Assembly (NCBI RefSeq): GCF_000092465.1
Contig: NC_014205.1
Span: 120,001-152,000, forward strand
DNA length: 32,000 nt
DNA from: Staphylothermus hellenicus DSM 12710
Lineage (GTDB): Archaea > Thermoproteota > Thermoprotei_A > Sulfolobales > Desulfurococcaceae
Reading direction: 5' to 3'
The notes under the pieces are model-generated. The model was given only the letters and a program-made list of their open reading frames with translations. It did not search any database and was not told where the DNA came from. Numbering within the stretch: position 1 is the stretch's first letter; each line of letters opens with the position of its first letter. Of the stretch, positions 3,681 to 27,528 are shown in pieces. Made by a program: the position numbers and the translations under genes.

Positions 3681-3682
3681 AT

Positions 3683-3976: not shown

Positions 3977-3986
3977 ATTAACACCT

Positions 3987-6135: not shown

Positions 6136-6137
6136 CG

Positions 6138-6677: not shown

Positions 6678-6682
6678 TTTAA

Positions 6683-8299: not shown

Positions 8300-8423
8300 A
8301 GTTAGGTTAAGCTAGCTAAAGACCTATTATAAGAGTCTTTTTGTTCAAGGTAATAAATTTTATCCGCCTATTAGAATATGGTTATGTGGGATAGTAATGG
8401 GATAAATCAGAAGATATAAGTGT

Positions 8424-8624
8424 TTAGGGATCATATACAGGAATCTTATTTAGGTCGAGTATTCCGGTTTTTATTTTCATTTCTAACCTGTAAGCAACAT
8501 ATTTATCTTCTGGACTAAATCTTGGGGGATGGGGGACAATAAGTTCTCCGCCACAATATGGGCAACGATCATGGTTGAGGGTGTATCTACCGCATCTAAT
8601 ACATTTACGCATCAGCCACCTCAT
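8424..8624 (-). CDS. nop10: H/ACA RNP protein Nop10
   Basis: Zn-ribbon CIRCGRYT...CPYCGG followed by PHPPRFSPEDKY, the Nop10 signature. ATGA overlap with the aIF2-alpha stop. The aIF2-alpha/Nop10 adjacency is conserved in archaea. The true start may be the second Met (MRKCIRCG). Confidence 0.85.
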   Translation of the reverse strand: MRWLMRKCIRCGRYTLNHDRCPYCGGELIVPHPPRFSPEDKYVAYRLEMKIKTGILDLNKIPVYDP

Positions 8625-9424
8625 TTTCTTTCACGCTCAAACCTAAACTCTACCTTTAACTCCTTCGCTAGTTTCTCGGTAGTTGCCAGTATTTCCTTTA
8701 ATATTTTCTCGGCTTCCTTATAATCTGGAGCTGTTATCTCTACAACGTATCGTGGAGATCCTAATAGATATATTCTTCCCTTAACATTATCTCCTACTTT
8801 ATCAAGGATTTCCTTAGCTGATAATAATATCTTCTTTATTCTCTCAACTCCATCTGATTCATAGCTTCTCAAAAACATTAATCCCCTTATCTTCACCATT
8901 TTCACTTTAACATGTCTTAGAGCGTCATTGTATAATGGCTTAATCCATTCTTCTGGAATACCTGCTTCGCGTAGAGCATCTGGTCCTCTGATAACAGCTT
9001 CTTCGAGCCCTAATAATGGATCACCATAATAGTCTTCAAGTTTCCACACAACCTCTCTATAAGCATCTTCAATGCTCTTACCTATTTTCTCAGCAACAAG
9101 CTCTACTATTTTAGATGCTTTCAAGTATCTTTTCCACCACAGAACTTTTCTTCTCTTCTCATTTTCGGGAACCTTCTTTAACGATACATCAACAGTTTTC
9201 CTGCGTCTATTAACCCTGATAACTTTAACAACTATTTTCTGGTTCTCACGTATAACGTCGCGAATATTTCTAACCCATCTAGAAGCCACTTCGCTCCACG
9301 GCAAATATGCTTCTAAACCATTATATTCATCCAGCGTAACATAGGCTCCATAATCAAAGATCTTCTTGACTGTTGCTATAACATATTCTCCAACATTTGG
9401 CAGTTCTTTTCTAGGTATAGGCAT
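8621..9424 (-). CDS. eif2a: Translation initiation factor aIF2 alpha subunit
   Basis: MPIPRKELPNVGEYVIATVKKIFDYGAYVTLDEYNGLEAYLPWSEVASRWVRNIRDV is the S1 domain of e/aIF2-alpha. I place the start at the ATG at 9424, preceded by GGGAGGG 8 nt upstream. The longer track ORF (to 9628) overlaps the upstream gene and is rejected. Confidence 0.9.
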   Translation of the reverse strand: MPIPRKELPNVGEYVIATVKKIFDYGAYVTLDEYNGLEAYLPWSEVASRWVRNIRDVIRENQKIVVKVIRVNRRRKTVDVSLKKVPENEKRRKVLWWKRYLKASKIVELVAEKIGKSIEDAYREVVWKLEDYYGDPLLGLEEAVIRGPDALREAGIPEEWIKPLYNDALRHVKVKMVKIRGLMFLRSYESDGVERIKKILLSAKEILDKVGDNVKGRIYLLGSPRYVVEITAPDYKEAEKILKEILATTEKLAKELKVEFRFERERK

Positions 9425-9458
9425 CTCTACAGCCCTCCCTTCTCTTCTACGTCTTTCT

Positions 9459-11516: not shown

Positions 11517-11665
11517 TTATCTCCTTCTTCCAAGCTATTATATTACAACTAGTAAATACGAAATAACCATAATAAATTAAAAATTGTTTCCTTCAATAAG
11601 ACAAAACAATTATTTTAATCTCGAAATAGTATTTTTATTCTGTAAGAGCTAAGCTAATAAACAGT

Positions 11666-12061
11666 GTGGTTGGAATGGCTAGGATAAAAAAGGAGTTGTT
11701 GGGTCATCTACTAGAATATGGATATGTAATAGAGAAAGTATCAACGCTTATTCTTGCAATAGTGTTTCTAATAACAATAATTATTATACCAAACTGGTAT
11801 AGAACTTTTCTAAACTATTCTCTTAGTCCCCAATTATACGGCGTCAGATATATTGGAACATCAATATTAATAACCGTGTTAATGCTTGTGAATGCGTTCG
11901 TAGCTTACTTAATACCGCACTTTGCACCATCTCTGAGGCCCAGAGGATTCAGGATGGTGAAGGATCGAAGAACATTATCGATTTATTTAGCCCTCATAGC
12001 TTCTTTGCTATCATTATCAATACTATCATATGTTTTACTAGTATCTCAGTTATTGATGTAG
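11666..12061 (+). CDS. Hypothetical membrane protein (3-4 TM helices)
   Basis: 131-aa ORF with clear hydrophobic segments and no recognisable motif. The likely start is the ATG at 11675. Its 3' end overlaps the convergent GINS-like gene by 12 nt. Confidence 0.4.
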   Translation: MVGMARIKKELLGHLLEYGYVIEKVSTLILAIVFLITIIIIPNWYRTFLNYSLSPQLYGVRYIGTSILITVLMLVNAFVAYLIPHFAPSLRPRGFRMVKDRRTLSIYLALIASLLSLSILSYVLLVSQLLM

Positions 12062-12547
12062 TATCTGCTCCAAATATGGATTAATAAACAATTCTATATT
12101 ACCCTCTATATAATGGATTAATGCTTCCTCAGCATTCATATAAACAATGTCTCCCGGCATATATTTTCTATTTTCAACATAGCATTCCTTCTTACACTTC
12201 ACTATTAATTTATCACCTATTCCGAGAAGAAACTTCGAAATATATAGTTTAGCGAAATCAACTATGCTGTTAATTTTATCCAATATAAACTTATCAATAG
12301 CTTCACCGGGATGATCGCTTCCAAGAGATTTCTTAGCAAGTCTAAGTCTAACCAGTAATTCTGCATCATAAACAATGTTCTCTAAAACTTTATTGAATAA
12401 TTTCTTAGAGTCTTTACTCATATATGCTAAGTCTCCAATATTGTTTTTAATGAACGATTCATATTCTTGGATCTTTGCGGGATGAATTAATGTTATTTTA
12501 TCTGAGCCTATTTCTTCTCTAATTAATCGTAAAAAGACATCATACAT
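12050..12547 (-). CDS. Probable GINS subunit (Gins15/Gins51-like)
   Basis: 165 aa with a helical N-terminal half and a beta-rich C-terminal half (KLIVKCKKECYVENRKYMPGDIVYMNAEEALIHYIEGNIELF). Its start overlaps the priS stop by 8 nt. A gins15 gene adjacent to priS is known from Saccharolobus. The assignment rests mainly on synteny and architecture. Confidence 0.5.
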   Translation of the reverse strand: MYDVFLRLIREEIGSDKITLIHPAKIQEYESFIKNNIGDLAYMSKDSKKLFNKVLENIVYDAELLVRLRLAKKSLGSDHPGEAIDKFILDKINSIVDFAKLYISKFLLGIGDKLIVKCKKECYVENRKYMPGDIVYMNAEEALIHYIEGNIELFINPYLEQILHQ

Positions 12548-13673
12548 TTTTAATCACCAATTTTTCATCACTAACTATTTTTACAATACCTTTTAAAGCA
12601 AGATAAACAGCAGTTTTAGAATCAAAAGATTCTTTCACGCCTCTTTTCAAATTAATTTTTTCGTTAAAAACTTGTAGGCCGGAAACATCTATTAGGGGCT
12701 TAACAATTATGCTTCCATTCCAAGGAGAGAAATCATTTGTGTTAAACATGTAATCCTCTCTTGGCTCTACATGCTTTGTTATTAATCCTGATTTTCCATT
12801 TATGGAGTTTCCAAACCTGGATAATCTAGAAATATCCATTGTAACAACTATGTCTATAGGTATTGCTAGGTCATTGATTATTTCTTCAAGAATTTTAAAG
12901 GGGAGTTTAATAAACAACTTATTTCCATTAACAATATTATTTTTGATCAAATAGTCGAGGACCCTCTTTCTTATTCCGTATTCATTTTTCGTGATTATAA
13001 CGTATTTGTTTCTCTTACCTACTACTGGAAATAATTTGTTAGTATCAAAGTTTTCAAGTGAAATATATGATGCTATTTCCCGTCTTTCATCGCCTCCTAG
13101 ATCCCAGATTTTTTCGTCGATTACTTTTACATGGAATCCTCTGTTTCCCGAAAAGTATATTTTAATATTTTTTAGTCCAAGCTCGTCTTCTAGTATGTAT
13201 TTTATTCTTAATGCGTCTATGTATGCTTTCTGAATACATTCTGTTTTAATTAATGGGTAAATTACTGGTTTAGATCCTGTTTTTGGACACTTCTTTATTT
13301 TTCCCTCATATATTGTGTTTTCTTCTATACATATTGATAATATCTTGCCGCATCCCGGATAATGGTCGGAGTCCAGATCAAACATTAGATCTGATCCTGT
13401 CCATCCCTTGAGTTCCATTTTCTTAATTGATGGCGATTCATAATATGCTGATGAATAATAGAGGTGTAAAGGGGTTTTCTCATTTAATATAAAATTGTAT
13501 AGATGGGTTATTGAGGGAAAAGTTAAATGCCTAATATATGCTTCATCCTCGAGACTATGAATAGCTATTTCTCTCTTATGAATATATAATGGTTCCTCTA
13601 ATGGTTTCTGAGAATAATATTCTCTAAGGATTTTTTTGATGAAAAATTTATTATTCAACTCTTGGCGCGACAT
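12540..13673 (-). CDS. priS: DNA primase small (catalytic) subunit PriS
   Basis: The catalytic motifs DLMFDLDSDH and YFSGNRGFHV of the archaeo-eukaryotic primase family are present. Confidence 0.9.
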   Translation of the reverse strand: MSRQELNNKFFIKKILREYYSQKPLEEPLYIHKREIAIHSLEDEAYIRHLTFPSITHLYNFILNEKTPLHLYYSSAYYESPSIKKMELKGWTGSDLMFDLDSDHYPGCGKILSICIEENTIYEGKIKKCPKTGSKPVIYPLIKTECIQKAYIDALRIKYILEDELGLKNIKIYFSGNRGFHVKVIDEKIWDLGGDERREIASYISLENFDTNKLFPVVGKRNKYVIITKNEYGIRKRVLDYLIKNNIVNGNKLFIKLPFKILEEIINDLAIPIDIVVTMDISRLSRFGNSINGKSGLITKHVEPREDYMFNTNDFSPWNGSIIVKPLIDVSGLQVFNEKINLKRGVKESFDSKTAVYLALKGIVKIVSDEKLVIKNV

Positions 13674-14397
13674 AGAATATTAACCTTCCCTCTTGTGGAA
13701 GAACATATTCGATTTTACATGGAACAGCTGTTGCAAACTCAAATGCTAGTTCTTCAGCTGCTTGTGATGCTCCGGAGATATCTGATAAGTAATCTATGGT
13801 ATATATTGCTCTAGCATCTTCTGAAGCCTCAAAATCTATGAGTGCGCCGTTTTCAACACTTAGCTCTATTTCAGCTTCAACCATGTCCCCTGAGGCTTTC
13901 GCTATAATTTTCTGTTCATCCTTAATAGCTCTAAACTCTATGGCATCACTTATAGGCTCTAATTCCTTAACCACATCCCTAAAAGTTGAAGGCAGCATTT
14001 TAGCTTTAACTGTAAACGGTATTTTTAGCTCGGGTAATTCTTCAGCGATTGTTTCTAGGCTTGGTATTATAAACATTCTTGTTCCACGTCCTAGAAAAAC
14101 TACTGCTAACCTTCCAGCCTCTAGTGTTTGAAGCTCTAGCTCGTCTCCCTTAACAGCTCTTCTCAAAATCTTTGTTAAATCCTCCATATTAACTCCTATA
14201 GTTTCCTCCTTATCGAATTCGTATTCTATTAGTCCTTCGCGTGGGATATGGAAGTCAACCATAACTATTCTTGATGGATCAATGGCTCGGAGCCTGATAC
14301 CGTTTTCCTGGATCTTATATGCTCCCTCATCTATTATTTTACCAATGGCGCTCATAGCATAACGCCAAGCACGAGCATCAGCGAATCTAAGCTTCAT
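13651..14397 (-). CDS. pcn: DNA polymerase sliding clamp PCNA
   Basis: 248 aa. The N-terminus MKLRFADARAWRYAMSAIGKIIDEGAYKIQENGIRLRAIDPSRIVMVDF is typical of archaeal PCNA. GAGGTG lies about 9 nt upstream of the ATG. Confidence 0.9.
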   Translation of the reverse strand: MKLRFADARAWRYAMSAIGKIIDEGAYKIQENGIRLRAIDPSRIVMVDFHIPREGLIEYEFDKEETIGVNMEDLTKILRRAVKGDELELQTLEAGRLAVVFLGRGTRMFIIPSLETIAEELPELKIPFTVKAKMLPSTFRDVVKELEPISDAIEFRAIKDEQKIIAKASGDMVEAEIELSVENGALIDFEASEDARAIYTIDYLSDISGASQAAEELAFEFATAVPCKIEYVLPQEGRLIFYVAPRVE

Positions 14398-14483
14398 AAA
14401 TATAACACCTCGTTTTTGGATAAATATCCAAGTATAAAATTATGTGGTTGAAAGTATTAATTTTATCCATTATCAAAATTTAT

Positions 14484-14654
14484 TTAGCTAAGGGTTTCAA
14501 GTAGTGATTGAACAAGTTCTTTTGCTCTTTTAATAAGTGTTTTCGAAGCTATATATGGTGGGGTAGAATAGTATGCTTCCAATAATAAATCGTTTAGTTG
14601 GTCAAGGGATTTCTCAAACAATTCTCTATCAACACATCTATTATCCCTAGTCAT
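14484..14654 (-). CDS. Small hypothetical protein (56 aa) translationally coupled to tfs
   Basis: Below the track size cutoff. My translation: MTRDNRCVDRELFEKSLDQLNDLLLEAYYSTPPYIASKTLIKRAKELVQSLLETLS. Its ATG (14654-14652) overlaps the TFS TGA (14653-14651) in an ATGA arrangement, and it fills most of an otherwise empty 253-nt gap. Confidence 0.3.
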   Translation of the reverse strand: MTRDNRCVDRELFEKSLDQLNDLLLEAYYSTPPYIASKTLIKRAKELVQSLLETLS

Positions 14655-14998
14655 TCATATTCCCTCCAGACATAACCACATCTTCTACACTTATAGAATC
14701 TTGTGGGTGGTTCGTCAGCAGCTCTTGTTTGAACTACCCAATAATATGCTTCATGGTAACCGCACCTCGGACAAGTTACTTCTCTAGTAATAGGTAGTCC
14801 CCGTAAACGTTCCTCCTCATCCACGACGGTTGTTTTCTCCTTATTGCTATGCTCGATTTTGACGGATATACGGTAAAGTTTTAGATCTTTCTCTGTAGCT
14901 TTTATTTTATATCCGCATCTTGTACATACTAGATAATACGTGTCTCCCTTCTTTACAGGCTTCATTATTCCTCCGCATCGCGGACAAAACTTAGGCAT
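14651..14998 (-). CDS. tfs: Transcription factor S (TFS; RpoM/TFIIS-like cleavage factor)
   Basis: Two Zn ribbons (CPRCGG...CTRCGY and CPRCGY...CRRCGY) and the acidic hairpin QTRAADEPPT, matching the TFIIS/TFS RSADE motif. Confidence 0.9.
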   Translation of the reverse strand: MPKFCPRCGGIMKPVKKGDTYYLVCTRCGYKIKATEKDLKLYRISVKIEHSNKEKTTVVDEEERLRGLPITREVTCPRCGYHEAYYWVVQTRAADEPPTRFYKCRRCGYVWREYE

Positions 14999-15098
14999 TT
15001 TTCCAATCCCTTACTATAGTTTTAGAGATTATACTCCTACTGCTATCCTCTATGAAAATGAAAATAACACCTAAATAATGTTATCTTGTAATGCTTAA

Positions 15099-15341
15099 CT
15101 AGCATTGTATAATAGAACTTGCACCGACTTGTTTTGTCGAGAAATATTTTAAACATTTAAGGATATGCTTGATCATGTTGCAATACGTGTTTTTTAAAAC
15201 CATGTAATTAGAACCCTCCAAAATTCTTAGGCTAGGAAATATTTTCTCATACTTGTTATCATTACAGATTATATAATATGATAGTTCTTCTTTAGTAATT
15301 AGCTTGTTCAATCCATGAATATGATCAATTACTTCTTTCAC
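15099..15341 (-). CDS. Hypothetical 80-aa ORF (doubtful)
   Basis: It is the only ORF in the 450-nt gap between tfs and rpoL, lies in a very AT-rich stretch, and has no motif. It may be spurious or a remnant. Confidence 0.2.
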   Translation of the reverse strand: MKEVIDHIHGLNKLITKEELSYYIICNDNKYEKIFPSLRILEGSNYMVLKNTYCNMIKHILKCLKYFSTKQVGASSIIQC

Positions 15342-15447
15342 ATGAAATATTCTGAGTTCTTCTAAAAATTTCTCCTATACACAGCGTATACATGGGTATT
15401 ATAATTACTTGTATATACTAAGATCCTGGATTCTGGCTTAACCTTAT

Positions 15448-15741
15448 TCATAGTTTTTCCTCGACTTCTTTTTTGAATTCTCTCAAAAACTTACGTATAT
15501 TCTCGGTTATTTCAAGCAATACTTCATTGATGTCAGCCCCTGGTTCTACATCAATCATTATTTCAAGCTTGTTTTGTAGTGGGTGAGGGATCCTATAAGA
15601 AGCATATACTACTTTGGGATGCTTCATTGCTTCTTTAGCAATTAGGTTTCCAAGAGTATCATCTTCCCCTATAATCTCGATAATAATTTCTGTATCGGTT
15701 TTCTTTAATACTTTAAGCTCCATATCCTCTACACCACTCAA
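15448..15741 (-). CDS. rpoL: DNA-directed RNA polymerase subunit L (Rpo11)
   Basis: IIGEDDTLGNLIAKEAMKHPKVVYASYRIPHPL matches the RpoL/Rpb11 GEDHTLGNLL...HP motif. Confidence 0.85.
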   Translation of the reverse strand: MSGVEDMELKVLKKTDTEIIIEIIGEDDTLGNLIAKEAMKHPKVVYASYRIPHPLQNKLEIMIDVEPGADINEVLLEITENIRKFLREFKKEVEEKL

Positions 15742-15744
15742 TAG

Positions 15745-16383
15745 TTACTTAGTCATTACCTTATTAAGAAACTCGCTTATAGCTCTTCTCCACTCCTTTC
15801 CCAACCTATATTTTTCATCTTCATCTTTAAATAATAAGCCGATACTATAAGCCTTCATAATAACTTCTTGAGGATCCATATCTGTGAGAATAGAAGCAGC
15901 CGTTAAGAAGTATTTTGTCGTTGTTCCACGAACATCATACTTGATCTTCTCTATAACATCCCATATATTATCTATTAATTCCTCTATTACCTCTAGTGGT
16001 GCATCAGTGATTATTTCGTCTTTGTAATCGCTTAGATCTGCTTTGAACCCTTTATGCTTTAATATTTCAGATAAGAGTACTGGTGAAAATGTTTTCTTTT
16101 TCTTCTCCACTAAATATTCGATCTTAATTCTCCTAGTACCCTTTTTACTATATTGTTCCGATGCTTTTGCTGATGAAACGAGTCTACGTATGTATTCCCA
16201 TGCATTCCTGATATCTGTTCTATACCCGTACATTTCTATATATAAGCCTGTATCGGTAATATTGATCTCTACAAGTTCTACTTGTGGAGCTTTTTCACGT
16301 ATAAGTTCTGCTAGTTTAAAGCATTCATCGCCTTTGCATGGAATATGGAAGAATCTTTTAGTGAGAGGCATATGGTTGTTCAC
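15745..16383 (-). CDS. Conserved-position hypothetical protein between csl4 and rpoL
   Basis: 212 aa, soluble and charged. Its start overlaps the csl4 stop by 4 nt and it ends 3 nt before rpoL, so it is clearly part of that operon. I recognise no catalytic motif. It may belong to the archaeal DUF-type family found in this position. Confidence 0.5.
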   Translation of the reverse strand: MNNHMPLTKRFFHIPCKGDECFKLAELIREKAPQVELVEINITDTGLYIEMYGYRTDIRNAWEYIRRLVSSAKASEQYSKKGTRRIKIEYLVEKKKKTFSPVLLSEILKHKGFKADLSDYKDEIITDAPLEVIEELIDNIWDVIEKIKYDVRGTTTKYFLTAASILTDMDPQEVIMKAYSIGLLFKDEDEKYRLGKEWRRAISEFLNKVMTK

Positions 16384-16958
16384 CGAAAAACATATGATGC
16401 ACTAATTTTTCTTTTTTCAACATTTCCGCATACAGGACATACGAGTTTATCATCTTGTTTCCTTAATGGTGATCCGCATTTTGTACAGAAAGCCGCGATT
16501 ACTCCTAGTCCTGGCTCCTTAGTTGTTAATTGGAATGGATGATTATTATTTATTACTCGTGCTCTGACAATATCTCCTATTCTCATTGCATCATACATTG
16601 TTTCAATATATTCTGAACTAGCCTGTGATATGTGGAGAATGCCTGTAAAACTAGTTGTTCTCGTGGGTTTCTCTTCTGTAGCATATATATCGATAAAGGC
16701 TAAATCTTCTGATACGCTTGATACGATTCCTTCAACTATATCGCCTACTTTTGGAACATATGGTTTACCATGAACACTCCTAACATTTGTTGTTCTCTTA
16801 ACAATGTCTATTAATACCCTGCCAACTAGTTGGGATCGTAGATATCCCTTACCATTCACATAAACTCCTTGTCCCGGAAAATATTCCTCTTCTACTCCTA
16901 ATACATCTCCGGGTAATACTAGTATTCCTTGCCTAATTTTCTCCATGGCACGCCTCAC
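16380..16958 (-). CDS. csl4: Exosome complex RNA-binding subunit Csl4
   Basis: N-terminal domain, central S1 domain (GDIVEGIVSSVSEDLAFIDI...) and a C-terminal Zn ribbon (CTKCGSPL...CPVCGN), the Csl4 architecture. Confidence 0.85.
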   Translation of the reverse strand: MRRAMEKIRQGILVLPGDVLGVEEEYFPGQGVYVNGKGYLRSQLVGRVLIDIVKRTTNVRSVHGKPYVPKVGDIVEGIVSSVSEDLAFIDIYATEEKPTRTTSFTGILHISQASSEYIETMYDAMRIGDIVRARVINNNHPFQLTTKEPGLGVIAAFCTKCGSPLRKQDDKLVCPVCGNVEKRKISASYVFR

Positions 16959-16959
16959 C

Positions 16960-17595
16960 CTATTGTTTCCTCTTCAAAACGTAAAAGATTACTTTAACTC
17001 TATATATCTTCCTCCTATGTGTTTCGAACAACATGGGTATTGGAAACAATAATTGCTCACTATATATTATTTTGAAACCAAAAGCATTAGCTAGCTCCTC
17101 GATAATCCTGGTTAGCCTTGGCGAATACTTGTGAATAGTATAGATGGATTCTGAAATCTCCATTGCTTTCTTCAAAAACAATATATCTAATCCACGATTT
17201 CTTCTAACCACACCAAATGGAGGATTCATAATAACTGTATCCACTGAATTAATGAATAGATCTCTAATATCACTATTAATCAGCAGTGTTTTAGCCGAAT
17301 AATCCCCGCCAAGATCTCTTAGTATTGATTCTGCTTGTCCAACTAAGGATTCATCAATATCTACACCTACCACAAGCTTTGCCCCTAAGAAAAGCGCTCC
17401 ATAGCCCAGTTTTAGATTACCGCATCCTAGATCAGCTATTTTCTTACCTGTTATATCCTTTCTAATAAATGCATTCCATAACATAGATGCAGCAATTGAT
17501 GAAGGTGTTTCATATTGTTCATATTGTCTTTTAGGATTACTAATGGACGGATACTTACTTAGTATTTTTTCTAGTTTCGCTTTATTTATTAACAA
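16960..17595 (-). CDS. SAM-dependent N6-adenine-type RNA methyltransferase (COG2263/METTL5-like)
   Basis: SAM-binding motif ADLGCGNLKLG, VVGVDID, and the catalytic IMNPPFG tetrad. The position next to csl4 matches the archaeal exosome-associated gene cluster. Confidence 0.8.
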   Translation of the reverse strand: MLINKAKLEKILSKYPSISNPKRQYEQYETPSSIAASMLWNAFIRKDITGKKIADLGCGNLKLGYGALFLGAKLVVGVDIDESLVGQAESILRDLGGDYSAKTLLINSDIRDLFINSVDTVIMNPPFGVVRRNRGLDILFLKKAMEISESIYTIHKYSPRLTRIIEELANAFGFKIIYSEQLLFPIPMLFETHRRKIYRVKVIFYVLKRKQ

Positions 17596-17704
17596 ATATT
17601 TTTCACCAATGCCGAAACAATATTTGTTAAACTAAATATTTATTGATATACTCGTACATATCTATTTTAGAGATAAATTTTCCTGAACTATTAAAGGTGA
17701 GATC

Positions 17705-18565
17705 ATGGATGGTTATGGTGATATTATTAGTTTTCTGTTTTGGCTAATACTATTATATTTGATAATTCATCCACAACTACAATATAAGTCTCTTCAAAGT
17801 GCTAGGTTGAAAATTATACGTGGTATGGAGAAGAAGTATGGTTGGAGAATAATAACGATGATACATAGACAGGAACGAATAGGTTTCTTAGGAATACCAA
17901 TGTATAGATTTATCGATATAGAGGATTCTGAGGCAGTATTGAGAGCAATACGTAATACTCCAGAGAATCAACCAATAGCTTTAATCCTTCACACACCAGG
18001 AGGATTAGTTCTTGCTGCCTCACAAATAGCTATGGCTCTGAAAAGACATAAGGGGAAGAAAATAGTTATTGTGCCACACTATGCTATGAGTGGGGGGACC
18101 CTGATAGCATTAGCTGCTGATGAAATAATAATGGATCCAGACGCTGTTCTAGGACCACTGGATCCCCAGCTCCAAACACCTAAGGGGACATTTCCAGCAC
18201 CTAGCTTAATAAAAATAGCTAAGATGAAGGGAGATAAGGCGAGCGATGATACATTGATTTATGGTGATATTGCGGAGAAAGCTCTACGTGAAATACAAGA
18301 GTTCATAGTTCAGTTATTAAAGGATAAGATGCCAGAGGAGAAAGCTTCTGAAGTTGCCAAAAAACTTACAGAGGGATACTATACGCATGATTATCCAATA
18401 ACAGTTGAGCACGCCAAAGAATTAGGGTTGCCTGTTAAAACAGATGTTCCTCCAGAAGTATATTTGTTGATGAATCTGTATCCGCAGGCAATACAGCAGA
18501 GACCAGGAGTAGAATATATTCCTAGGCCCCACGTCCCATATTATCATGGTAAGCATGAGAAGTGA
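17705..18565 (+). CDS. Membrane-anchored ClpP-fold serine protease (SDH/SppA-NfeD-like)
   Basis: N-terminal TM helix, then LILHTPGGLVLAASQIAMALKRHKGKKIVIVPHYAMSGGTLIALAADEIIMDP, typical of ClpP/crotonase-fold S49-like proteases. Confidence 0.65.
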   Translation: MDGYGDIISFLFWLILLYLIIHPQLQYKSLQSARLKIIRGMEKKYGWRIITMIHRQERIGFLGIPMYRFIDIEDSEAVLRAIRNTPENQPIALILHTPGGLVLAASQIAMALKRHKGKKIVIVPHYAMSGGTLIALAADEIIMDPDAVLGPLDPQLQTPKGTFPAPSLIKIAKMKGDKASDDTLIYGDIAEKALREIQEFIVQLLKDKMPEEKASEVAKKLTEGYYTHDYPITVEHAKELGLPVKTDVPPEVYLLMNLYPQAIQQRPGVEYIPRPHVPYYHGKHEK

Positions 18566-20269: not shown

Positions 20270-21391
20270 TTATTTCTCTAAAACAACTATTTTAGGATAT
20301 AATCCTCCATGTTGAACTGTTCTTTTATGAATTACTCTAAAACCTATATCGCCGGCTTTCTTCAACACATAGTTATACTCTGTTGTTATAATAGTTAATC
20401 GACCACCTGGCTTCAACGATTTATATGCTGAACCTAGGAAGTCCCTGTATAGTTTCCTAATAACTACTGGGTCTCCGTATCGGATGCCGTACGGTGGATT
20501 ACTAACTATATGATCTACTTGTTCATCGAAGATCACATGTAATCTCCTAGCATCCCATACGCCAAAAACAACTTTTCCATAAACACCTGAAGCATAAGCA
20601 TTAAGTTTTGCTCCTCTAACATGTTTCGGGTTTCGATCATATCCATAAATAAGTGCTTCTTCATGTAGAAGACCTGCTTCTATAGGAATAGTTCCTCCAC
20701 CACACATTGGATCAACTATTACTTGTTTATCTCTTGTACCCGATAATGTTAGCATAGCATATGCTAGTGTGGGTTTAAGAGCTGCTGGATGATCATATAT
20801 TCTATATCCTCTCCTATGAAGACTCCTAGAACCCGTTAGTGAAACTCCGAGAAAGAAGTTCTCATCCCTTACAAAAACATGGATTATGATATGTGGTGTT
20901 CTCAAATTAACAACTGGCTTAACACCTGTTTTCTCCTCAACCTTCCTAATAATTATTTCTCCAACAATACGTGAAATATCCATAGATGTATATTCATGAC
21001 TGCCTAGACGTTCCGTATCAACAGCAAATGATGTATGAGGAGTTATATAGTAATGAATTGTTTCAAGCGAAGAAACAAGTTCTTCTCTAAGCTTTACTAA
21101 ATCATTTGTTCTAGGACCAACTCTGCTCTTAAACAACAAGATAAATGCGCGATTAATACTTCTAAGCCTATAAATAGCTTCAAAACTAACATTGTCAACA
21201 ACATGGTATACATGCCCACTCATTTTTTCAAAGCTAGTAACACCGCCTAGCTCAGCTCTAATCTCCTCAGATGCGATATCCTCAATGCCTGGATTAACCG
21301 TATATAGTAGTTCCACGGTAATCCACCATGTAAAACCCCTATACTCCTCGACAAGTGAATACTGTATAAATCTATAAATAAACAATATCAC
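20270..21391 (-). CDS. THUMP-domain tRNA (guanine-N2)-methyltransferase (Trm14/Trm11-like)
   Basis: An N-terminal THUMP-like region followed by the SAM motif DPMCGGGTIPIEAG and catalytic SNPPYG. The true start may be the in-frame GTG at 21316 (VELLYTVNPG...), because the first 25 codons are atypical. Confidence 0.8.
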   Translation of the reverse strand: MILFIYRFIQYSLVEEYRGFTWWITVELLYTVNPGIEDIASEEIRAELGGVTSFEKMSGHVYHVVDNVSFEAIYRLRSINRAFILLFKSRVGPRTNDLVKLREELVSSLETIHYYITPHTSFAVDTERLGSHEYTSMDISRIVGEIIIRKVEEKTGVKPVVNLRTPHIIIHVFVRDENFFLGVSLTGSRSLHRRGYRIYDHPAALKPTLAYAMLTLSGTRDKQVIVDPMCGGGTIPIEAGLLHEEALIYGYDRNPKHVRGAKLNAYASGVYGKVVFGVWDARRLHVIFDEQVDHIVSNPPYGIRYGDPVVIRKLYRDFLGSAYKSLKPGGRLTIITTEYNYVLKKAGDIGFRVIHKRTVQHGGLYPKIVVLEK

Positions 21392-21446
21392 CGATAAAGG
21401 TAAGGATTATAATGGGATTATAGACCAGTAAAAATAATGGAGAAAA

Positions 21447-21570
21447 GCGGGGGTGCCCGAGCCAGGTTAAAGGGGGCGGACTCAAGACAGGGCCGACATA
21501 ATGGTGGTTAGGCCCAGGGGAGATCCGCTGGCGTAGGCCTGCGTGGGTTCAAATCCCACCCCCCGCACCA
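21447..21570 (+). tRNA. tRNA-Leu(CAA), class II, with an intron of about 36 nt at position 37/38 and an encoded 3' CCA
   Basis: Folded by hand. Acceptor GCGGGGG/CCCCCGC, D-arm CCC-GAGCCAGGTTAAA-GGG, anticodon stem GCGGA/TCCGC with loop CU-CAA-GA (anticodon 21493-21495). The intron is about 21497-21532 and contains a GGGCC/GGCCC stem. Long variable arm TGGCGTAGGCCTGCG, T-arm TGGGTTCAAATCCCA, discriminator A followed by CCA. Confidence 0.85.
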
Positions 21571-21601
21571 TCTCAATTATCAGAACAACTCTTATGAATA
21601 G

Positions 21602-21622
21602 AAAACAACCAGTTGTTGTTTT
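21602..21622. terminator. Hairpin plus T-run between the tRNA and the convergent csx1 gene (candidate terminator)
   Basis: AAAACAAC (21602-21609), loop CAGTT, GTTGTTTT (21615-21622): a perfect 8-bp stem ending in a T-run on the plus strand and an A/T-run on the minus strand. Confidence 0.3.
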
Positions 21623-21759
21623 CAGTTCGGTTTATAGATAAATAATTTATAGATAGAAGAACAAGCTCTTTAGGTAAACTGTGTTTGGAAGATTATGGGT
21701 TTGTCTAGTTTCTCTAGTAGTAGTGATTTGAAGTTTTTACTTGTTCTTGTTTAAGAATA

Positions 21760-23313
21760 TTATCGGATACACTCGTGTATTTTGCTGGCTCCCCCTATGT
21801 TTTTTAGTGTTTTTACTAGTTTATTGTAGTCATACTCTACCTCTATTATTCCGCATTCATGGTTTCTCCATTCTACCTTTACATATTTTATTATATTGTG
21901 GTTTAGTGCTGCGTGTGCTACAAAGTTTCTTGGATCTACTATTTTGTCATTCCCTATGCTTTGTATGCCCTTCTTTTTTGCCCAGTATTCTTTTAGCAGT
22001 TTTGCATCGATTATTTCCCTTCCCGTATCTTTACTAGCTTCACACGCCGTCTCTGTCAGTTCTGATGCCTCCTTTATAATTATCTGCTTCCTATCCCAGT
22101 AACCGTTTCTATCCAATATTCTGCTTACATGTTTAGCGAATTCCTTGAGGTATAATGGTTCTAGGTTTAGAAGCCTACTATACTCCTCCACCATATATTT
22201 TTGTAGGAAGTCCAGTATTGGTATATACTTGGCTAGCTCCTCAGGCAGTAATGAACGGTATTCAACAGTGTTGTCGGTAATATCTGGCGTTATCCATGGC
22301 CTGTTATAATCTACTTGGTAGATCTTCTTTAAGGAATTATAAATATTGTTTACTGTGAATGGAATATTTCTTCCATTAGATAACTTGCTATTGCTATATA
22401 ATAGCCCTAATAAACCCGATCTTAGTGCTTCAACCATACATACTGTCTTATCCATTAATTCCACATACTTATCATGTACCCTCTTCTCCCTCAGCCCTTT
22501 TAGTAGCTTATTTAGCTGTTTTTCGCTTAGATATCTTAGAGAGTCTAATGCCCTCAAGAAATCTATTATCTTCTGTAGAAGGGATATGTTATGTATATTC
22601 AGGGATGGAACATCTTGGATCTGCTTTTCCTCACTTTCTAACTTTTCGCTTTTCTCTAATTGTCTATGTTTTCCAGCCCTCCTACCAGGTGGATATGGTT
22701 CGGAGTTGAACGTGTATATTTTCTTACCATATACTATTGATGCTGCTACTGTAGCGTATAGTGTTGCTATTGTCAATATGTTTAAGCCATGTGTTGTATC
22801 CAGTACTATTACGCTTGGCTTAAAGCTCTCAATATTCAATACTATGTTCCGGTATGATTCAAGAAACATCTTGATAATATCTCCCTTAAAATAGTATCCA
22901 TGATACTCGCCTATACCAGGTACTACTCCTACATATATATCGTTAACCCATTCAGGATTTTTCTCCAAGCCATCGCATTTTGTACGGTTGAACAAATCCT
23001 TCACTGTTTCATAGAACCATTTCTCAACATTACCACGCAGATCATTAATATCAGGTTTTATAACAGTATCTGAGCCTATAATTAGTAAGCGTGCATCATC
23101 AACCTCATCATATGATTTAAGCAATAAGTATAATGTAAGAGAGCTACTGCAACTTATGCAACAGCCACCGATATCTATACCCCTATCACTGGCTTTTCTC
23201 AAACAATATTTTGCCTCGTCCCATCCTTTCGGATAACCCCATGGCGCCACAACTAGGACTCTAAACGAGGAGCTATTCATAGTAATCACAAAATATACTA
23301 TGTTCTTTCTCAT
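21760..23313 (-). CDS. csx1: Csx1-family CARF-HEPN protein (cyclic-oligoadenylate-activated ribonuclease type)
   Basis: N-terminal CARF hallmarks RVLVVAPWGYPKGWDEAKY and VLDTTHGLN. C-terminal HEPN R-x4-H motif DPRNFVAHAALNH (nt 21913-21930). A more likely start is Met12 (ATG at 23280, MNSSSFRVLVV...). Confidence 0.75.
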   Translation of the reverse strand: MRKNIVYFVITMNSSSFRVLVVAPWGYPKGWDEAKYCLRKASDRGIDIGGCCISCSSSLTLYLLLKSYDEVDDARLLIIGSDTVIKPDINDLRGNVEKWFYETVKDLFNRTKCDGLEKNPEWVNDIYVGVVPGIGEYHGYYFKGDIIKMFLESYRNIVLNIESFKPSVIVLDTTHGLNILTIATLYATVAASIVYGKKIYTFNSEPYPPGRRAGKHRQLEKSEKLESEEKQIQDVPSLNIHNISLLQKIIDFLRALDSLRYLSEKQLNKLLKGLREKRVHDKYVELMDKTVCMVEALRSGLLGLLYSNSKLSNGRNIPFTVNNIYNSLKKIYQVDYNRPWITPDITDNTVEYRSLLPEELAKYIPILDFLQKYMVEEYSRLLNLEPLYLKEFAKHVSRILDRNGYWDRKQIIIKEASELTETACEASKDTGREIIDAKLLKEYWAKKKGIQSIGNDKIVDPRNFVAHAALNHNIIKYVKVEWRNHECGIIEVEYDYNKLVKTLKNIGGASKIHECIR

Positions 23314-23397
23314 AGAAAAATTTTAGAGAGGAGATAGAAGACAGGTATTCTAAGCTATCGATAATGCTTTTGCTAGAGGTGCTATATAGATATAGGC

Positions 23398-24702
23398 TTA
23401 GAAGATATTCTTATTTAGTTCGTGTCTAAGTATGTCATATGCTTTAAGAACATCTTTTTGAGCCCTTAAATGATCGATCTCCTTCTCAATTCTACGCTTT
23501 ATGCTTTCACTCTTATTCATGAACAATTCTAGATCACCCTTACGTAGACCAAATGTGACATCTAAATATACAGGGAATAATCTCTCCCTTTGAACTCTAG
23601 GACCATATATTACATGCCTACTAAGCCATTGGTAGAGTCTCCGCGCGCTTGTTCGAGAATCCCCAGTAATTATCTTATTATTCTTTCTGAAAAGCTCGGG
23701 GTATTTCTCACCTAGTCTCACTATGTATCTATCCAAGAACACCTTATTCCATACATCGCCCGGTAGCTCGAGTTGTTCAAGATAGCCCTCGTATTCTACT
23801 ATGTCCTCGTGGAGTTGTTTAAGAAATGGTTTAATTGGATTGTTCTCGCTTAGGCTATTGATGAGTAGGAGGCGGAAGTAAGGGTTAACTATGTAATCTC
23901 TTAGAGCAGCCCAGAGCCTCTTGGTTCCACTGACTTTCAGCTTGTTCAGCCTGTATGGCTCAATATTTCTTGGCAAGAGGAAATGCTTTTCCTCAGCATA
24001 TTTGCAGAGATCCCCTATCCTGAATTCTTCTCTCTCATAAGTTAAAATGTTTAGTATTGCCGCCAATAACCTGATCCAATTGTTTTCATCAATACATGAA
24101 CATTCCCTAAGCTTTTCATCAATATAGTTGGCTAGGCTTCCTCCATAATTGGAAAGTGTTCTAAGAGTTCTTAGAAGTAATTTTCTTGGTGTATTATAAT
24201 ATACGTGGGTATACTTTAACCCTGTCCAAGGATCTCTAAGGCGTTTTCTACCAATAATGATTTTCTCCAATTCATCAACCTTTTTTCCATTATATAGCTC
24301 ATTTGCAATGGAGTAGAATATTGGGAAGTTTAGCCATATAAGGTCAGCCTTCTCACGGTAGTTGAAGATATATGCTAGCCAGTGCGCTAATATAAATACA
24401 CCAGCACCATGGTCTAGTTCTTTTAAGAATTTGGAGAAGCTTTCATAACTAGTATTAAAGCCTAGCTCCTCGCATTTACGTAGTGGGAAGTTAAGTGTTT
24501 TTGAATACTCATCTACTGCAAGCCAAGTTATTAGCCTCATATCCTTAGCCACTGCAAAGATGTGGCACAAATTCATTGCTTGGTGAAAAGTGAAGTCTAA
24601 CCAGGGCTTCTCTCTAGTTCTAATATTTGCTCCAAGTGTTGCTATACGCATCAAAAACCATGCGTCTAGAAGTCTATCCAAATCCATACAAGTAGCCTCC
24701 AT
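23398..24702 (-). CDS. Uncharacterised 434-aa soluble, predominantly helical protein. It weakly resembles the DUF2400/TIGR02757 and HhH-GPD glycosylase-like signatures.
   Basis: Long uninterrupted ORF, co-oriented with csx1 and 84 nt upstream of it. No TM segment, P-loop or nuclease motif recognised. The segments MRIATLGANI, SGTKRLWAALRDYI, LELPGDVWNKVF..RLG and VYLDVTFGL recall, from memory only, the AyG / GSAcKRlnlFLRW / iPLDtHv / YDfALFGLG blocks of TIGR02757-type proteins. Confidence 0.6.
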   Translation of the reverse strand: MEATCMDLDRLLDAWFLMRIATLGANIRTREKPWLDFTFHQAMNLCHIFAVAKDMRLITWLAVDEYSKTLNFPLRKCEELGFNTSYESFSKFLKELDHGAGVFILAHWLAYIFNYREKADLIWLNFPIFYSIANELYNGKKVDELEKIIIGRKRLRDPWTGLKYTHVYYNTPRKLLLRTLRTLSNYGGSLANYIDEKLRECSCIDENNWIRLLAAILNILTYEREEFRIGDLCKYAEEKHFLLPRNIEPYRLNKLKVSGTKRLWAALRDYIVNPYFRLLLINSLSENNPIKPFLKQLHEDIVEYEGYLEQLELPGDVWNKVFLDRYIVRLGEKYPELFRKNNKIITGDSRTSARRLYQWLSRHVIYGPRVQRERLFPVYLDVTFGLRKGDLELFMNKSESIKRRIEKEIDHLRAQKDVLKAYDILRHELNKNIF

Positions 24703-25150
24703 ATCATGTAGGCATAGGCCATTATACAGATACAGTAATAGATCTATTAGAACATTTTTTATTTATTTTTTTATGCTTCTCAGTTATTGGAACACTTACC
24801 AATGGTAGCGAAGATGCACTTATATTCTTAATGTTTGGGGGAACCAGGTTTAGTTTAGTGCTTTGCCTCTATGTATGGTTCTATAATAAAAATAAATTCA
24901 TTCTTAACTCCGAGAATAATGTGGAATCTTCATATTATGAAGAAATCATAGTCTATGTTCTGTCGTGGCTTGATGTAGATCCTAATACTCCCATATATAA
25001 TAATTTTATATTGTATATATGATGTAAGGAGTCTTCAGCTCTAGTGAATTGTTTATAGATTTATAATGTCTTAAATTGGTCTTGCCCGTTCTGTATAGAC
25101 ATCATGTTTTTTATTTTTCATAGTCATGGTTTATCTTTGGGTGTAATAGG

Positions 25151-25984
25151 TTGCTGTATAGGTTTCTTCACTTGGTTACTGTTGGTACCAGTATTATCCG
25201 TAATGCTTCTTTTCATGAGAGCGTTGAGGCTGGTGTTAGGGAGAGGCTTGCTAAGTGGTCTATGGCCCCGCCTCATAGTGGTGAGGATGTTGAGGCTGGT
25301 AATAGAGCTGTTCCTAGTTCTAAGGAGTTTAGGGAGGTTCTTGGTTTTGTATCAGGATCTCCTAGGAGGGCTAGTGCTGAGCTTAATGCGTTCATAGGGT
25401 ATCTTGAGCGCTTAGTGAGTAGGGGGATTGATGGTGTAAGCCATTATCTTGTATTGTTTGGTTCTGATACTGGTGCTGGCTGGTTTTCTACTAGGATTTT
25501 AGAGGAGTATCTGGGAAGTCTTGTTGGACAGGATCTTTCTAGGACATGGGGTGTAAGAGGACATTTTATAGGTGGCGTTGAAGCTTATCGGGTAAGGGGT
25601 CTTGGAGTTAACTTCCAGGATGGAATATTGAATCTCCTTGGAAAAGTTAAGAAGATCGTGATCAGTATGGGTAAGGGGTATGACAGGGTTTTAGCAAACC
25701 TTACAGGAGGCTTTAAACCGGAATCCGCCGCAATACTTGTAGTAGCAGGTATGCTGGGAATAGACACGGTATACTATATACATGAGGCAATGAGGGAGGT
25801 TGCTGAAATACCAGTCATACCACTAACAATAGAACCCAATGCAAAAAAGATCCTGGAAAACGCCCTCGAAAATAATATAGGGGGTGCAGAGCAAAAACTT
25901 CTAGAAAAACTAGGGCTACCATTAACAGGCAAAAAACTAACACCATGGAGCAAGAAACTACTTGAAACACTGCTATACCCATAA
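25151..25984 (+). CDS. CARF-domain-only protein of the Cas_APE2256/TIGR02619 type (ring-nuclease-like or cOA sensor)
   Basis: N-terminal HLVTVGTSIIRN, RRASAELNAF and ANLTGGFKPESA match my recollection of the APE2256-family blocks (hLvTvGTSll.N, SAEln, N.TGGfK). A short helical C-terminal tail follows, with no effector domain. Apparent TTG start at 25151, preceded by GGGTG. Confidence 0.6.
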   Translation: MLYRFLHLVTVGTSIIRNASFHESVEAGVRERLAKWSMAPPHSGEDVEAGNRAVPSSKEFREVLGFVSGSPRRASAELNAFIGYLERLVSRGIDGVSHYLVLFGSDTGAGWFSTRILEEYLGSLVGQDLSRTWGVRGHFIGGVEAYRVRGLGVNFQDGILNLLGKVKKIVISMGKGYDRVLANLTGGFKPESAAILVVAGMLGIDTVYYIHEAMREVAEIPVIPLTIEPNAKKILENALENNIGGAEQKLLEKLGLPLTGKKLTPWSKKLLETLLYP

Positions 25985-26097
25985 GCAAAACCTTCCTAGT
26001 TCTCTAGAGATATTCATGATTGTTTTCTTTTAGGATACTTTTAAGATGATCTTTAATGACTAGGTCAAAGCTTCCTCCTACCTATCTGGCTATGTAA

Positions 26098-27528
26098 TTA
26101 TAGCAGGGTATTTCTCCTGAGAGAATCCTTGTTTTCTAGAACATACTTAGCTACTTCTAGTGCTTTCCTATATAGTTTCTCGGGTATGATTCCTTTTTCA
26201 TAATATGTTTTAAGCTCTTCTTCATCAATAATATATGCTTCACCAGTGTTTTTCACAATGACATCTATTAATAGATCATGATACTTTATTGTGCCGGGAA
26301 GTATTTCTGGCGGTGTATTTATATTTATATATGAGCCGAGCCATTCATTTCCGCGGTAATAGTTATGGCTTATTATCCATGAATTCTCCTCGATCACCAT
26401 ATAATCTATGTCTCTAGGCTTCTTTTCCACGCCTAATCCATCATAGACTCCTATACTCTTCAATGTTCTCTTTAAAACAATCTTTACTCCATTCTCAGAT
26501 TTCACTATCTCATGTATTGTTCCCGGAGATAATGTATGGGTTATTCCATCTGGTTTTTTATGTATAATCCTTATTTTTGGGAGAGACTTGTTTTTTTCTA
26601 AGATATAATCCAATAACGAGTTATGTATTGTTTCTTTGGAGACGCTGTGTCTAAGAAGGATCTCTGAGTAATCCACTATATCACTCATAGCATTATTGCA
26701 GCTTTTAAGGCTATGATGCCTAGTAATTGTAGGTATTACTTTGTCTCTATATGAATCAAGTTTTTCTTTTGCTAAACTAGTTAAGCCTATTAAACCTATG
26801 AATTCTCCCTCATAAAGTATTTTAGGAGCATCTTCTATGTGTTTAGCTTTATCTAGCAGTTCTCCTAGTTTTTGTTTTAACTCATCTATTTCTCTCTCTA
26901 TTTCTTCCTTCCCAGCATATTTACTACTGCTTCTTAAATGAACTCCCAGTCCTGAACCCATTATTTTAGACATAGCAATAGCTAGTAGATATTCTCTTTT
27001 ATCCCGGTCACGTATGTGCTCCGATATTGTTAGGGAGGGTTTTCCATATATTATGGATACATATTTACCGATTACCCGGATATTACGTGTCAGTAATGCT
27101 TCTTCGCCGGGTTTAATAGGGGCTTTAGCTACTCCAACTAAAACCTTTTTGCCAATATCCAAGTTGCAGCGGGGAAGTATTCCTTTAACATTGTTTCCTA
27201 TCTCCACTATGCATTTATCCCCTATCTTATCCCTAATCAAGCCTACATGGATACTGTGTAGTCCTACTGGCGAAATCCATTTGAAAGCATACTCTAGTTC
27301 TTCCACGAGATCATTATATACTTTATCGGCGTGGCCGTAGAAGCCTAATACTAATAATTCGTCTTTATCAGCATCTTTAACGGTTACATCAGCTGGAGAA
27401 GTGTCTAGGGGAAGGTTGAGTCTTTCACGTATAATATTGCTTGCTTGAACTATTCTATATCCTTTATCTAATAATATCTTTGAAACAGCAGTTGCAGTAA
27501 TACCTCTAACTCTAACTCCTGTACACAA
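26098..27528 (-). CDS. FAU-1-like RNA-binding protein / RNase E/G-like (aRNase G) with a C-terminal DUF402-like domain
   Basis: 476 aa. The N-terminus VRVRGITATAVSKILLDKGYRIVQAS resembles the archaeal FAU-1 N-terminus. An S1-like region is present, and the C-terminal YHDLLIDVIVKNTGEAYIIDEEEL resembles DUF402. Confidence 0.6.
   Translation of the reverse strand: MCTGVRVRGITATAVSKILLDKGYRIVQASNIIRERLNLPLDTSPADVTVKDADKDELLVLGFYGHADKVYNDLVEELEYAFKWISPVGLHSIHVGLIRDKIGDKCIVEIGNNVKGILPRCNLDIGKKVLVGVAKAPIKPGEEALLTRNIRVIGKYVSIIYGKPSLTISEHIRDRDKREYLLAIAMSKIMGSGLGVHLRSSSKYAGKEEIEREIDELKQKLGELLDKAKHIEDAPKILYEGEFIGLIGLTSLAKEKLDSYRDKVIPTITRHHSLKSCNNAMSDIVDYSEILLRHSVSKETIHNSLLDYILEKNKSLPKIRIIHKKPDGITHTLSPGTIHEIVKSENGVKIVLKRTLKSIGVYDGLGVEKKPRDIDYMVIEENSWIISHNYYRGNEWLGSYININTPPEILPGTIKYHDLLIDVIVKNTGEAYIIDEEELKTYYEKGIIPEKLYRKALEVAKYVLENKDSLRRNTLL

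Follow-up and report, generated by a model that had tools for sequence, protein, structure and literature searches.

A 32-kb stretch of the Staphylothermus hellenicus DSM 12710 chromosome (NC_014205.1, positions 120,001 to 152,000; hereafter the window, whose positions are used for all coordinates below unless another locus is named) raises the question of what two genes for CARF-domain proteins, one encoding a Csx1 and the other a putative ring nuclease of the APE2256/CARF7 family, are doing among housekeeping genes beside a gene for a 434-residue protein of no assigned family. An earlier, sequence-only reading placed the three genes between a tRNA-Leu gene and a FAU-1-like gene, where all three are indeed present, and considered either that they form a self-contained unit responding to a nucleotide signal, with the 434-residue protein as its third component, or that they are remote accessories belonging to a type III CRISPR locus elsewhere. 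The results presented here lead us to regard the two CARF genes as probably a displaced pair of Csx1 and Crn1 that acts in trans, with the 434-residue protein as an unrelated resident of the same defence island. The three genes are as follows.

21760..23313, minus strand: Csx1, with a CARF9-type CARF domain and a HEPN RNase domain, a 517-residue open reading frame (ORF) identified with Pfam, NCBIfam and PADLOC
23398..24702, minus strand: 434-residue protein of an unannotated, predicted all-α family, 84 nt upstream of Csx1 and on the same strand
25151..25984, plus strand: predicted Crn1-like ring nuclease, CARF7/APE2256, of the 'large standalone' type, a 277-residue ORF from a TTG codon

Identity of the two CARF proteins

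The Csx1 ORF is 100% identical to the NCBI entry 'CRISPR-associated CARF protein Csx1 [S. hellenicus]'; the NCBI product has 506 residues compared with 517 in the ORF, and its annotated start is probably the ATG at 23280. Residues 20–206 form an N-terminal CARF domain (Pfam PF22230, Csx1_CARF, E = 4.8e-28), the full-length protein scores 117.1 bits on TIGR01897 (cut-off 110), and the PADLOC CARF9 model for CARF_HEPN proteins, PDLC01961, is matched with 1025 bits. The Pfam Csx1_HEPN model taken alone remains below threshold (17.8 versus 23 bits). A regular-expression search of the translation places the HEPN catalytic motif near the C-terminus.

21913..21930, minus strand: HEPN catalytic motif R-x4-H, RNFVAH, Csx1 residues 462–467

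This motif aligns with the PRNVLAHA HEPN motif of the Csm6 chains in PDB entries 6o6x and 6o6s. The description of the gene as a Csx1 with an intact R-x4-H motif is thus borne out, both by the CARF9 and TIGR01897 matches and by the motif itself. Within the 32-kb window no cas gene or array lies next to Csx1; Cas10 is found at the level of the genome, and cas10 adjoins Csx1 orthologues in other archaea.

The divergently transcribed gene encodes a protein that matches Pfam PF09651 (Cas_APE2256, 1.9e-27), TIGR02619 (7.5e-25; 87.6 bits against a cut-off of 37.45) and the PADLOC CARF7 model PDLC01926 (1.1e-66). On an identical Logan contig the gene was called with 270 residues, starting at 25172. 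The best matches in the PDB are 3qyf (Sso1393, 8e-15) and 7pq2 (Sis0811, 4e-12), which are Crn1 'large standalone ring nucleases' made up of a CARF7 domain and a helix-turn-helix (HTH), the key residues in Sis0811 being S12 and K169 (PMC9638899). In the alignment to 7pq2 and 3qyf the catalytic equivalents are kept, as Ser14 in VGTS (25190–25192) and Lys189 in TGGFKPE (25715–25717). The Crn1-type assignment made earlier therefore stands on the Pfam and CARF7 matches and on the Ser/Lys pair, whereas the label 'CARF-only' is probably imprecise, given that the best matches are to the CARF+HTH proteins Sis0811 and Sso1393. The alignment to these proteins covers residues 6–258 of 277, and no separate HTH model was matched. 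On the NCBIfam equivalog 'CRISPR system ring nuclease' (NF040951) the protein reaches 51.4 bits, far below the cut-off of 600, and we therefore treat it as a distant member of the family that is not orthologous to the enzymes of the Sulfolobales.

A type III system elsewhere on the chromosome

The Cas10 that adjoins a Csx1 orthologue in a related archaeon was used as a probe for the genome's own Cas10. It identifies 'type III-A Cas10/Csm1 [S. hellenicus]' (P0137), a protein of 943 residues encoded on the same 1.58-Mb chromosome, with the HD motif LLHDIGK at its N-terminus and SGGDD at position 719. Its operon (locus L081) further encodes a 140-residue protein, two RAMPs and a 395-residue protein, and is syntenic with the region at 316–340 kb of the S. 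marinus genome (CP000575), where three CRISPR arrays and cas1/csa1/cas2/cas4/cas6/csa3 follow downstream. There is no overlap between L081 and the window, which makes this type III module a remote one.

The end of L081 (13805–13893 of that locus) is 82–85% identical to sequence bordering the CRISPR arrays of S. marinus (L083), which suggests that the S. hellenicus type III contig breaks at an array directly after cas10. Three CRISPR arrays are given in the S. hellenicus genome paper (PMC3236042), and four repeat types from this organism were used in another study (PMC3597662).

As far as the type III locus of S. hellenicus is visible, it contains neither a Csx1 nor a ring nuclease, and nor does the syntenic S. 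marinus locus. This fits the idea that the pair in the window serves this system in trans, and the Csx1 of the window may be the sole effector of the S. hellenicus type III system that responds to cyclic oligoadenylate (cOA). The genes had been called an orphan island, a description that has to be given up: a Cas10 with HD and GGDD motifs, its RAMP operon and array sequence are all present elsewhere in the same genome. The suggestion of a remote accessory of a type III locus, made at the same time, is supported by this Cas10 and its RAMP partners at a non-overlapping locus.

The Csx1–APE2256 pair in related archaea

Four loci whose flanks could be used (L076, L077, L085 and L086) carry orthologues of the S. 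hellenicus Csx1, with 42–47% identity, and in all four an APE2256 gene of 277–281 residues lies directly downstream of Csx1 in convergent orientation. L076 and L077 come from assemblies of related uncultured archaea (GCA_027022365.1 and GCA_027013395.1); here the pair stands immediately after a RAMP-RAMP-RAMP-Cas10 series, the Csx1 orthologues have 47% identity to that of the window, and the APE2256 protein of L076 has 49% identity to its counterpart. The neighbours of the pair in L085 are type I cas genes (Cas3-like, Cas5, DevR-type Cas7, Csa3 and Cas6) and a CRISPR array. L086 is a short contig on which the pair lies beside the same two genes as in L085, one for an HD-domain protein and the other a large gene cut by the contig end. 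Crn1, which falls in CARF7, is a typical component of type III loci in crenarchaea, and the combination of Csx1 with a ring nuclease is a known one (PMC12409355).

None of the four loci holds a relative of the 434-residue protein, and the repeated occurrence of the Csx1–APE2256 pair in its absence speaks against the proposal of a self-contained three-gene unit.

A striking difference in base composition is seen within L076, where over positions 10001–11500 the Csx1 orthologue has 37.4% guanine plus cytosine (GC) and the adjacent APE2256 gene 55.9%, compared with 47.2% for the whole locus.

Sequence family and predicted structure of the 434-residue protein

The gene between the two CARF genes is on the Csx1 strand, with a gap of 84 nt, and has no assigned family, all as had been read from the sequence: neither the 434-residue protein nor any of more than 60 homologues matches a model in Pfam, NCBIfam, PADLOC or PHROGs, and no sensor or effector domain can be recognised in it by these collections. 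The S. hellenicus product is 100% identical to an S. hellenicus protein in the databases. Searches against the sequences of the PDB, with a family profile and with one bacterial member as queries, likewise returned nothing.

Homologues were found in both bacteria and archaea, 70 in one database and, as cluster representatives, 62 in another. Four motifs are conserved in the S. hellenicus protein, HW (residues 107–108), KRLWAALRDY (261–270), LELPGDVWN (311–319) and YP..LD (376–381); the residues invariant in our alignment A1 are H107-W108, K261-R262-x-W264, R268-D269, E312-x-P-G-D316, N319 and D381. The members fall into an archaeal subfamily (32–57% identity), extended at the N-terminus by some 80 residues and without the Cys-rich C-terminus of the bacterial proteins, and a larger, mainly bacterial group of about 380 residues whose Cys-rich C-terminal end carries four nearly invariant Cys residues. 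Two candidate members, P0076 and P0087, were rejected as repetitive, low-complexity artefacts; in them residues 369–405 were matched 13–21 times, and their Pfam matches were scattered and sub-threshold.

AlphaFold2 models of the S. hellenicus protein and of a bacterial member, P0023, are both all-α, with mean predicted confidence (pLDDT) of 91.5 and 92.6, respectively. Foldseek searches of the PDB and BFVD with both models gave nothing significant, no match having E<0.1. Ranked by probability, MUTYH came first with one model (prob 0.60, E 1.1); with the other it was a viral Endonuclease III (prob 0.41, E 1.6, TM 0.49 on the target). Membership of the HhH-GPD superfamily of Endonuclease III and MutY was considered on account of these two weak fold matches, the LPGD motif and the Cys cluster; all fold matches have E>1 and TM values of 0.3–0.5. 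At the profile level a relationship to Endonuclease III found no support: hhalign comparisons of alignments A1 and A4, run against one and then three Endonuclease III sequences, gave a probability of 0.3–0.4%, with only a CxxC stretch aligned. No Endonuclease III homologue that could serve for a deeper profile was present among the fetched loci. We conclude that the resemblance of the family to Endonuclease III and MutY is a lead and not membership.

Gene neighbourhoods of the family

The neighbourhoods fetched were 67 loci of species-representative genomes, 18 metagenome loci (for the archaeal subfamily), two viral contigs and five exact-protein contexts, giving after deduplication about 88 loci besides the window. 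Among those from genomes are loci of Dehalococcoidia, Planctomycetota, Desulfobacterota, Clostridia, Bacteroidales, Methanosarcinales, Thermoplasmata and Bathyarchaeia. All-against-all BLAST clustering revealed no conserved partner gene, since no neighbour family exceeds 6 of 71 loci or keeps a constant position; by phmmer, the same-strand neighbours are not homologous to one another, nor are the small upstream ORFs. The family thus behaves as a singleton gene.

No association with CRISPR or CARF genes emerges from these loci. A Cas10 hidden Markov model (HMM) gives a single match within 10 kb of a family member among the ~88 (in L024), HMMs for Csx1 and CARF7, trained on sequences of this lineage, find no relatives in these loci outside the window, and a k-mer array finder, which does detect the arrays in the Csx1 and Cas10 loci, finds no CRISPR array in any family locus. 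The 434-residue protein had been put forward as the third component of a cOA-responsive module, on the understanding that lack of neighbourhood association with CARF or CRISPR genes in other genomes would speak against this; such association is lacking across the ~88 other loci. L024, a locus in a metagenome-assembled genome of the Chloroflexota, is the sole family locus besides the window that lies near CRISPR genes. The family gene is split there into two ORFs, possibly by a frameshift (57–1587), about 1.6 kb from a type III operon (3225–10865) whose first gene encodes an 827-residue Cas10.

The 233 genes within two positions on either side of a family member include, by Pfam and PADLOC, those for BrxL, Mrr, type I and type III restriction enzymes, pAgo, MADS and DpdF, together with UvrD/GajB-like helicases, SLFN/AlbA and PIN proteins, mixed with housekeeping genes; these are raw occurrences. 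The simplest reading is that the family inhabits defence islands and that the S. hellenicus island happens to hold displaced CARF genes as well. No member was found in plasmid and phage collections, and only two loci are on viral contigs, a scarcity that speaks neither for nor against a role in defence.

Individual archaeal loci have a similar character. In L095 a homologue with 43% identity (9938–11047) lies between a complete type I restriction-modification system (HsdR/S/M) and a Piwi-domain protein, and a second, partial copy of the family gene is found 8 kb downstream on the same contig (19191–20137). Homologue P0005 in L001 is directly upstream of a NurA-HerA-Mre11-Rad50 operon (11587–18423), in the vicinity of DndB, a group II intron reverse transcriptase and a metallo-β-lactamase-fold protein. 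Other close archaeal homologues are found beside an Mrr-like nuclease and AAA_23, beside a methyltransferase, and beside a PIN gene.

A model for the locus and its alternatives

In the model that we favour, the type III complex encoded elsewhere on the chromosome would bind target RNA, whereupon Cas10, with its intact GGDD cyclase motif, would produce cyclic oligoadenylate, most probably cA4. Binding of cA4 to the CARF domain of Csx1 would switch on its HEPN RNase (RNFVAH), and the Crn1-type CARF7 protein would slowly cleave cA4 and so reset the system. The 434-residue protein would stand outside this circuit, the CARF genes being mere neighbours in the same island.

Several points weigh against this model or leave room for another. 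The gene order in S. hellenicus differs from that in its relatives, with APE2256 upstream of Csx1 and divergent in place of downstream and convergent; a rearrangement has therefore occurred, and it could have created a new functional unit. Csx1 follows the 434-residue gene on the same strand after only 84 nt, so that co-transcription is possible, and the closest homologue of the 434-residue protein (P0002, 56–57% identity) lies on a 1.8-kb contig that offers no context. No CARF family is present among the 25 most frequent Pfam and PADLOC neighbour families listed, a ranking in which a singleton could hide, and the local CARF HMMs are narrow, being built from one lineage, so that divergent CARF or SAVED neighbours could escape them.

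One alternative is the proposal that the three genes are a self-contained module responding to a nucleotide signal, in which the 434-residue protein acts as effector, signal modifier or regulator. Its short distance from Csx1, its physical position between the two CARF genes and the absence of both it and Csx1 from S. marinus, which would allow a joint arrival, all speak for such a partnership, as does the L024 member about 1.6 kb from a type III operon. However, the orthologous pair does without the 434-residue gene in four loci, L024, with its gene split in two, is the one exception to the lack of a CARF or CRISPR link in the ~88 family loci, no sensor or effector domain can be recognised in the protein, and the presence in the genome of a Cas10 predicted to be cOA-competent means that the module is not self-contained. 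We consider this proposal improbable. Still less probable, in our view, is that the rearrangement left the two CARF genes behind as a remnant, idle or in decay, that no longer contributes to immunity. It does lie away from any cas gene or array, in an altered gene order, but both ORFs are full length and match their orthologues (277 compared with 277–281 residues for APE2256; 517 compared with 499–524 for Csx1), the catalytic residues are intact (RNFVAH; Ser14/Lys189), and the type III loci of S. hellenicus, as far as visible, and of S. marinus have no Csx1, so that this one may be the only cOA effector.

For the 434-residue protein itself our best guess, held with low confidence, is a stand-alone, nucleic acid-directed enzyme of defence or DNA processing. 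A bolder reading, possible but doubtful, is that this undescribed family has a new all-α fold and, in its bacterial members, a probable Fe-S or Zn cluster at the Cys residues, that it acts as such an enzyme in defence islands, and that in S. hellenicus the gene may moreover be co-transcribed with Csx1, which would tie its expression to the type III response. A more specific version, that the family is a stand-alone anti-virus gene of a new type, perhaps a DNA-directed enzyme distantly akin to Endonuclease III and MutY, that merely shares an island with the CARF genes, seems to us possible but doubtful. Its defence-rich neighbours (BrxL, Mrr, type I/III restriction-modification, pAgo, MADS, DpdF, PIN and SLFN/AlbA), its solitary and phylogenetically patchy occurrence, the charged or aromatic nature of its invariant residues (H, K, R, D, E and W), the four nearly invariant C-terminal Cys of its bacterial members and the appearance of MUTYH and a viral Endonuclease III as the highest-probability matches in two independent Foldseek searches are what such an enzyme might be expected to show. 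Against this, the fold matches all have E>1, the profile-profile probability for Endonuclease III is 0.3%, no PADLOC or PHROG model is matched, many neighbours are housekeeping genes, and the association with defence islands comes from raw neighbour lists.

Flanks, intergenic regions and origin of the segment

The segment is bordered by housekeeping genes, with L10e as a further such gene on the left, and UPF0147 and thymidylate kinase beyond FAU-1 on the right.

20270..21391, minus strand: Trm14 tRNA (guanine(6)-N2)-methyltransferase, left-flank housekeeping gene (NCBIfam NF040721, 289.5 bits, cut-off 280)
21447..21567, plus strand: tRNA-Leu(CAA), left border, with a long variable arm and, following position 37/38, an intron of ~39 nt (Rfam RF00005)
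23314..23397, minus strand: spacer of 84 nt from the stop codon of the 434-residue gene to the first Csx1 ATG, with AT-rich, TATA-like boxes
24703..25150, no strand assigned: divergent intergenic region of 448 nt between the 434-residue gene and the APE2256 gene (from the sequence)
26098..27528, minus strand: FAU-1, RNase E/G-like with DUF402, right border, housekeeping gene (Pfam DUF402 1e-16, RNase_E_G 4e-8)

The tRNA-Leu(CAA) gene was recognised by a local Rfam scan (43 bits, E 7e-8) and by direct reading of its anticodon loop, CUCAAGA; both ARAGORN and a whole-window Rfam scan at the gathering threshold missed it. The earlier finding that the 32 kb contain no other cas gene and no array is upheld: tblastn with 22 Cas proteins of related loci recovers only the Csx1 and APE2256 genes, the Cas10 HMM has zero matches, and the array searches of the window are negative.

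The 448-nt region presumably carries the promoters of both flanking genes. A 20-nt motif, TAGAG(T/G)TGCTATATAGATAT, occurs at 1186–1205 and at 23374–23393 with 95% identity, the second copy falling inside the 84-nt spacer between the 434-residue gene and Csx1, and a weaker copy is found at 7679–7698; from its TATA-like look it could serve these sites as a common promoter or regulatory element. Two copies of a 17-nt direct repeat, GTTTATAGAT(A/T)(A/T)ATAAT, lie at 21630–21646 and 25051–25067; they are identical at 15 of 17 positions and flank Csx1 and the 434-residue gene. Being AT-rich, it could reflect promoter boxes, a rearrangement scar or chance, and may well be due to chance.

Acquisition of the three genes as a cassette had also been proposed, partly on account of a shift in composition in the APE2256 gene. 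The shift is real, the gene having the highest GC content in the window (43.8%, compared with 37.9 ± 3.1% for the window genes, or ~1.9 standard deviations), but it is small and recurs across the family: three APE2256 orthologues have 55.9, 49.6 and 49.5% GC in loci of 47.2, 46.2 and 46.6%, respectively. Since the orthologues also exceed their own loci, high GC is a property of this gene family and a weak sign of acquisition. The positive GC skew merely follows the coding strand and is seen equally at 17.5–18.5 kb. No direct repeat derived from the tRNA and no att-like site is present in 21400–26200, and none of the three ORFs of the segment encodes an integrase. S. marinus, which is represented in the database searched, has no close homologue of Csx1 or of the 434-residue protein, so the segment differs between the two species, which are 73–89% identical at the DNA level; either gain or loss could account for this absence. 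Overall, the case for acquisition as a cassette is a weak one.

Significance

Had there been a CRISPR-independent cOA module here with a third component of a new kind, it would have deserved notice; the proposal fails at this locus, and the combination of Csx1 and Crn1 is an already known one of effector and off-switch. What the locus does offer is a clean case of type III ancillary genes at a remote site, of a kind that surveys limited to a few kb around cas10 will miss. The 434-residue family is modestly interesting by itself, although nothing ties it to cyclic oligoadenylate signalling; unnamed, with a confident predicted fold, very strong motifs and a habit of living in defence islands, it is a low-cost candidate for defence-gene screens. 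The intron-containing tRNA-Leu that escaped two standard scans is also of some use.

Comparison with known systems

The closest comparison available for the 434-residue family is with Endonuclease III and MutY. The likeness consists in an all-α structure, a loose similarity of L-P-G-D-V-W to the LPG[VI]G hairpin and the Cys-rich C-terminus of the bacterial members. The differences are that the Cys spacing in these members is not the C-x6-C-x2-C-x5-C pattern, and that a Cys cluster is altogether absent from the S. hellenicus protein, unlike Endonuclease III with its [4Fe-4S] cluster loop.

The S. hellenicus Csx1 shares its architecture with Pyrococcus furiosus Csx1 (PDB 4EOG), with the Csm6 chains of 6O6S and 6O6X, which we take to be from Thermococcus onnurineus, and with the TIGR01897 family, in that a long helical insertion stands between the CARF domain at the N-terminus and the HEPN domain, with its R-x4-H motif, at the C-terminus. 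Its similarity to solved structures is weak, with E 3e-5 at best and over the CARF region alone. In the Makarova 2020 classification, in the form that PADLOC uses, it falls in the CARF9 clade, and it departs from known Csx1 proteins in having no adjoining cas gene or array in S. hellenicus. The predicted ring nuclease resembles Sis0811 (7PQ2/7PQ3) and Sso1393 (3QYF) in its CARF7 domain, in the equivalents of S12 and K169 and in its length (277 compared with 275–324 residues), and its pairing with Csx1 is that of Crn1-type genes in crenarchaeal type III loci.

Taken as a pair, the two genes are orthologous to those of the related archaea, with 42–49% identity and closely similar lengths (277 compared with 277–281 residues for APE2256 and 517 compared with 499–524 for Csx1). 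In the relatives Csx1 and APE2256 are adjacent and convergent, among cas genes and arrays, whereas in S. hellenicus the APE2256 gene is upstream and divergent, 1.8 kb from Csx1, with an unrelated gene between them and housekeeping genes on either side.

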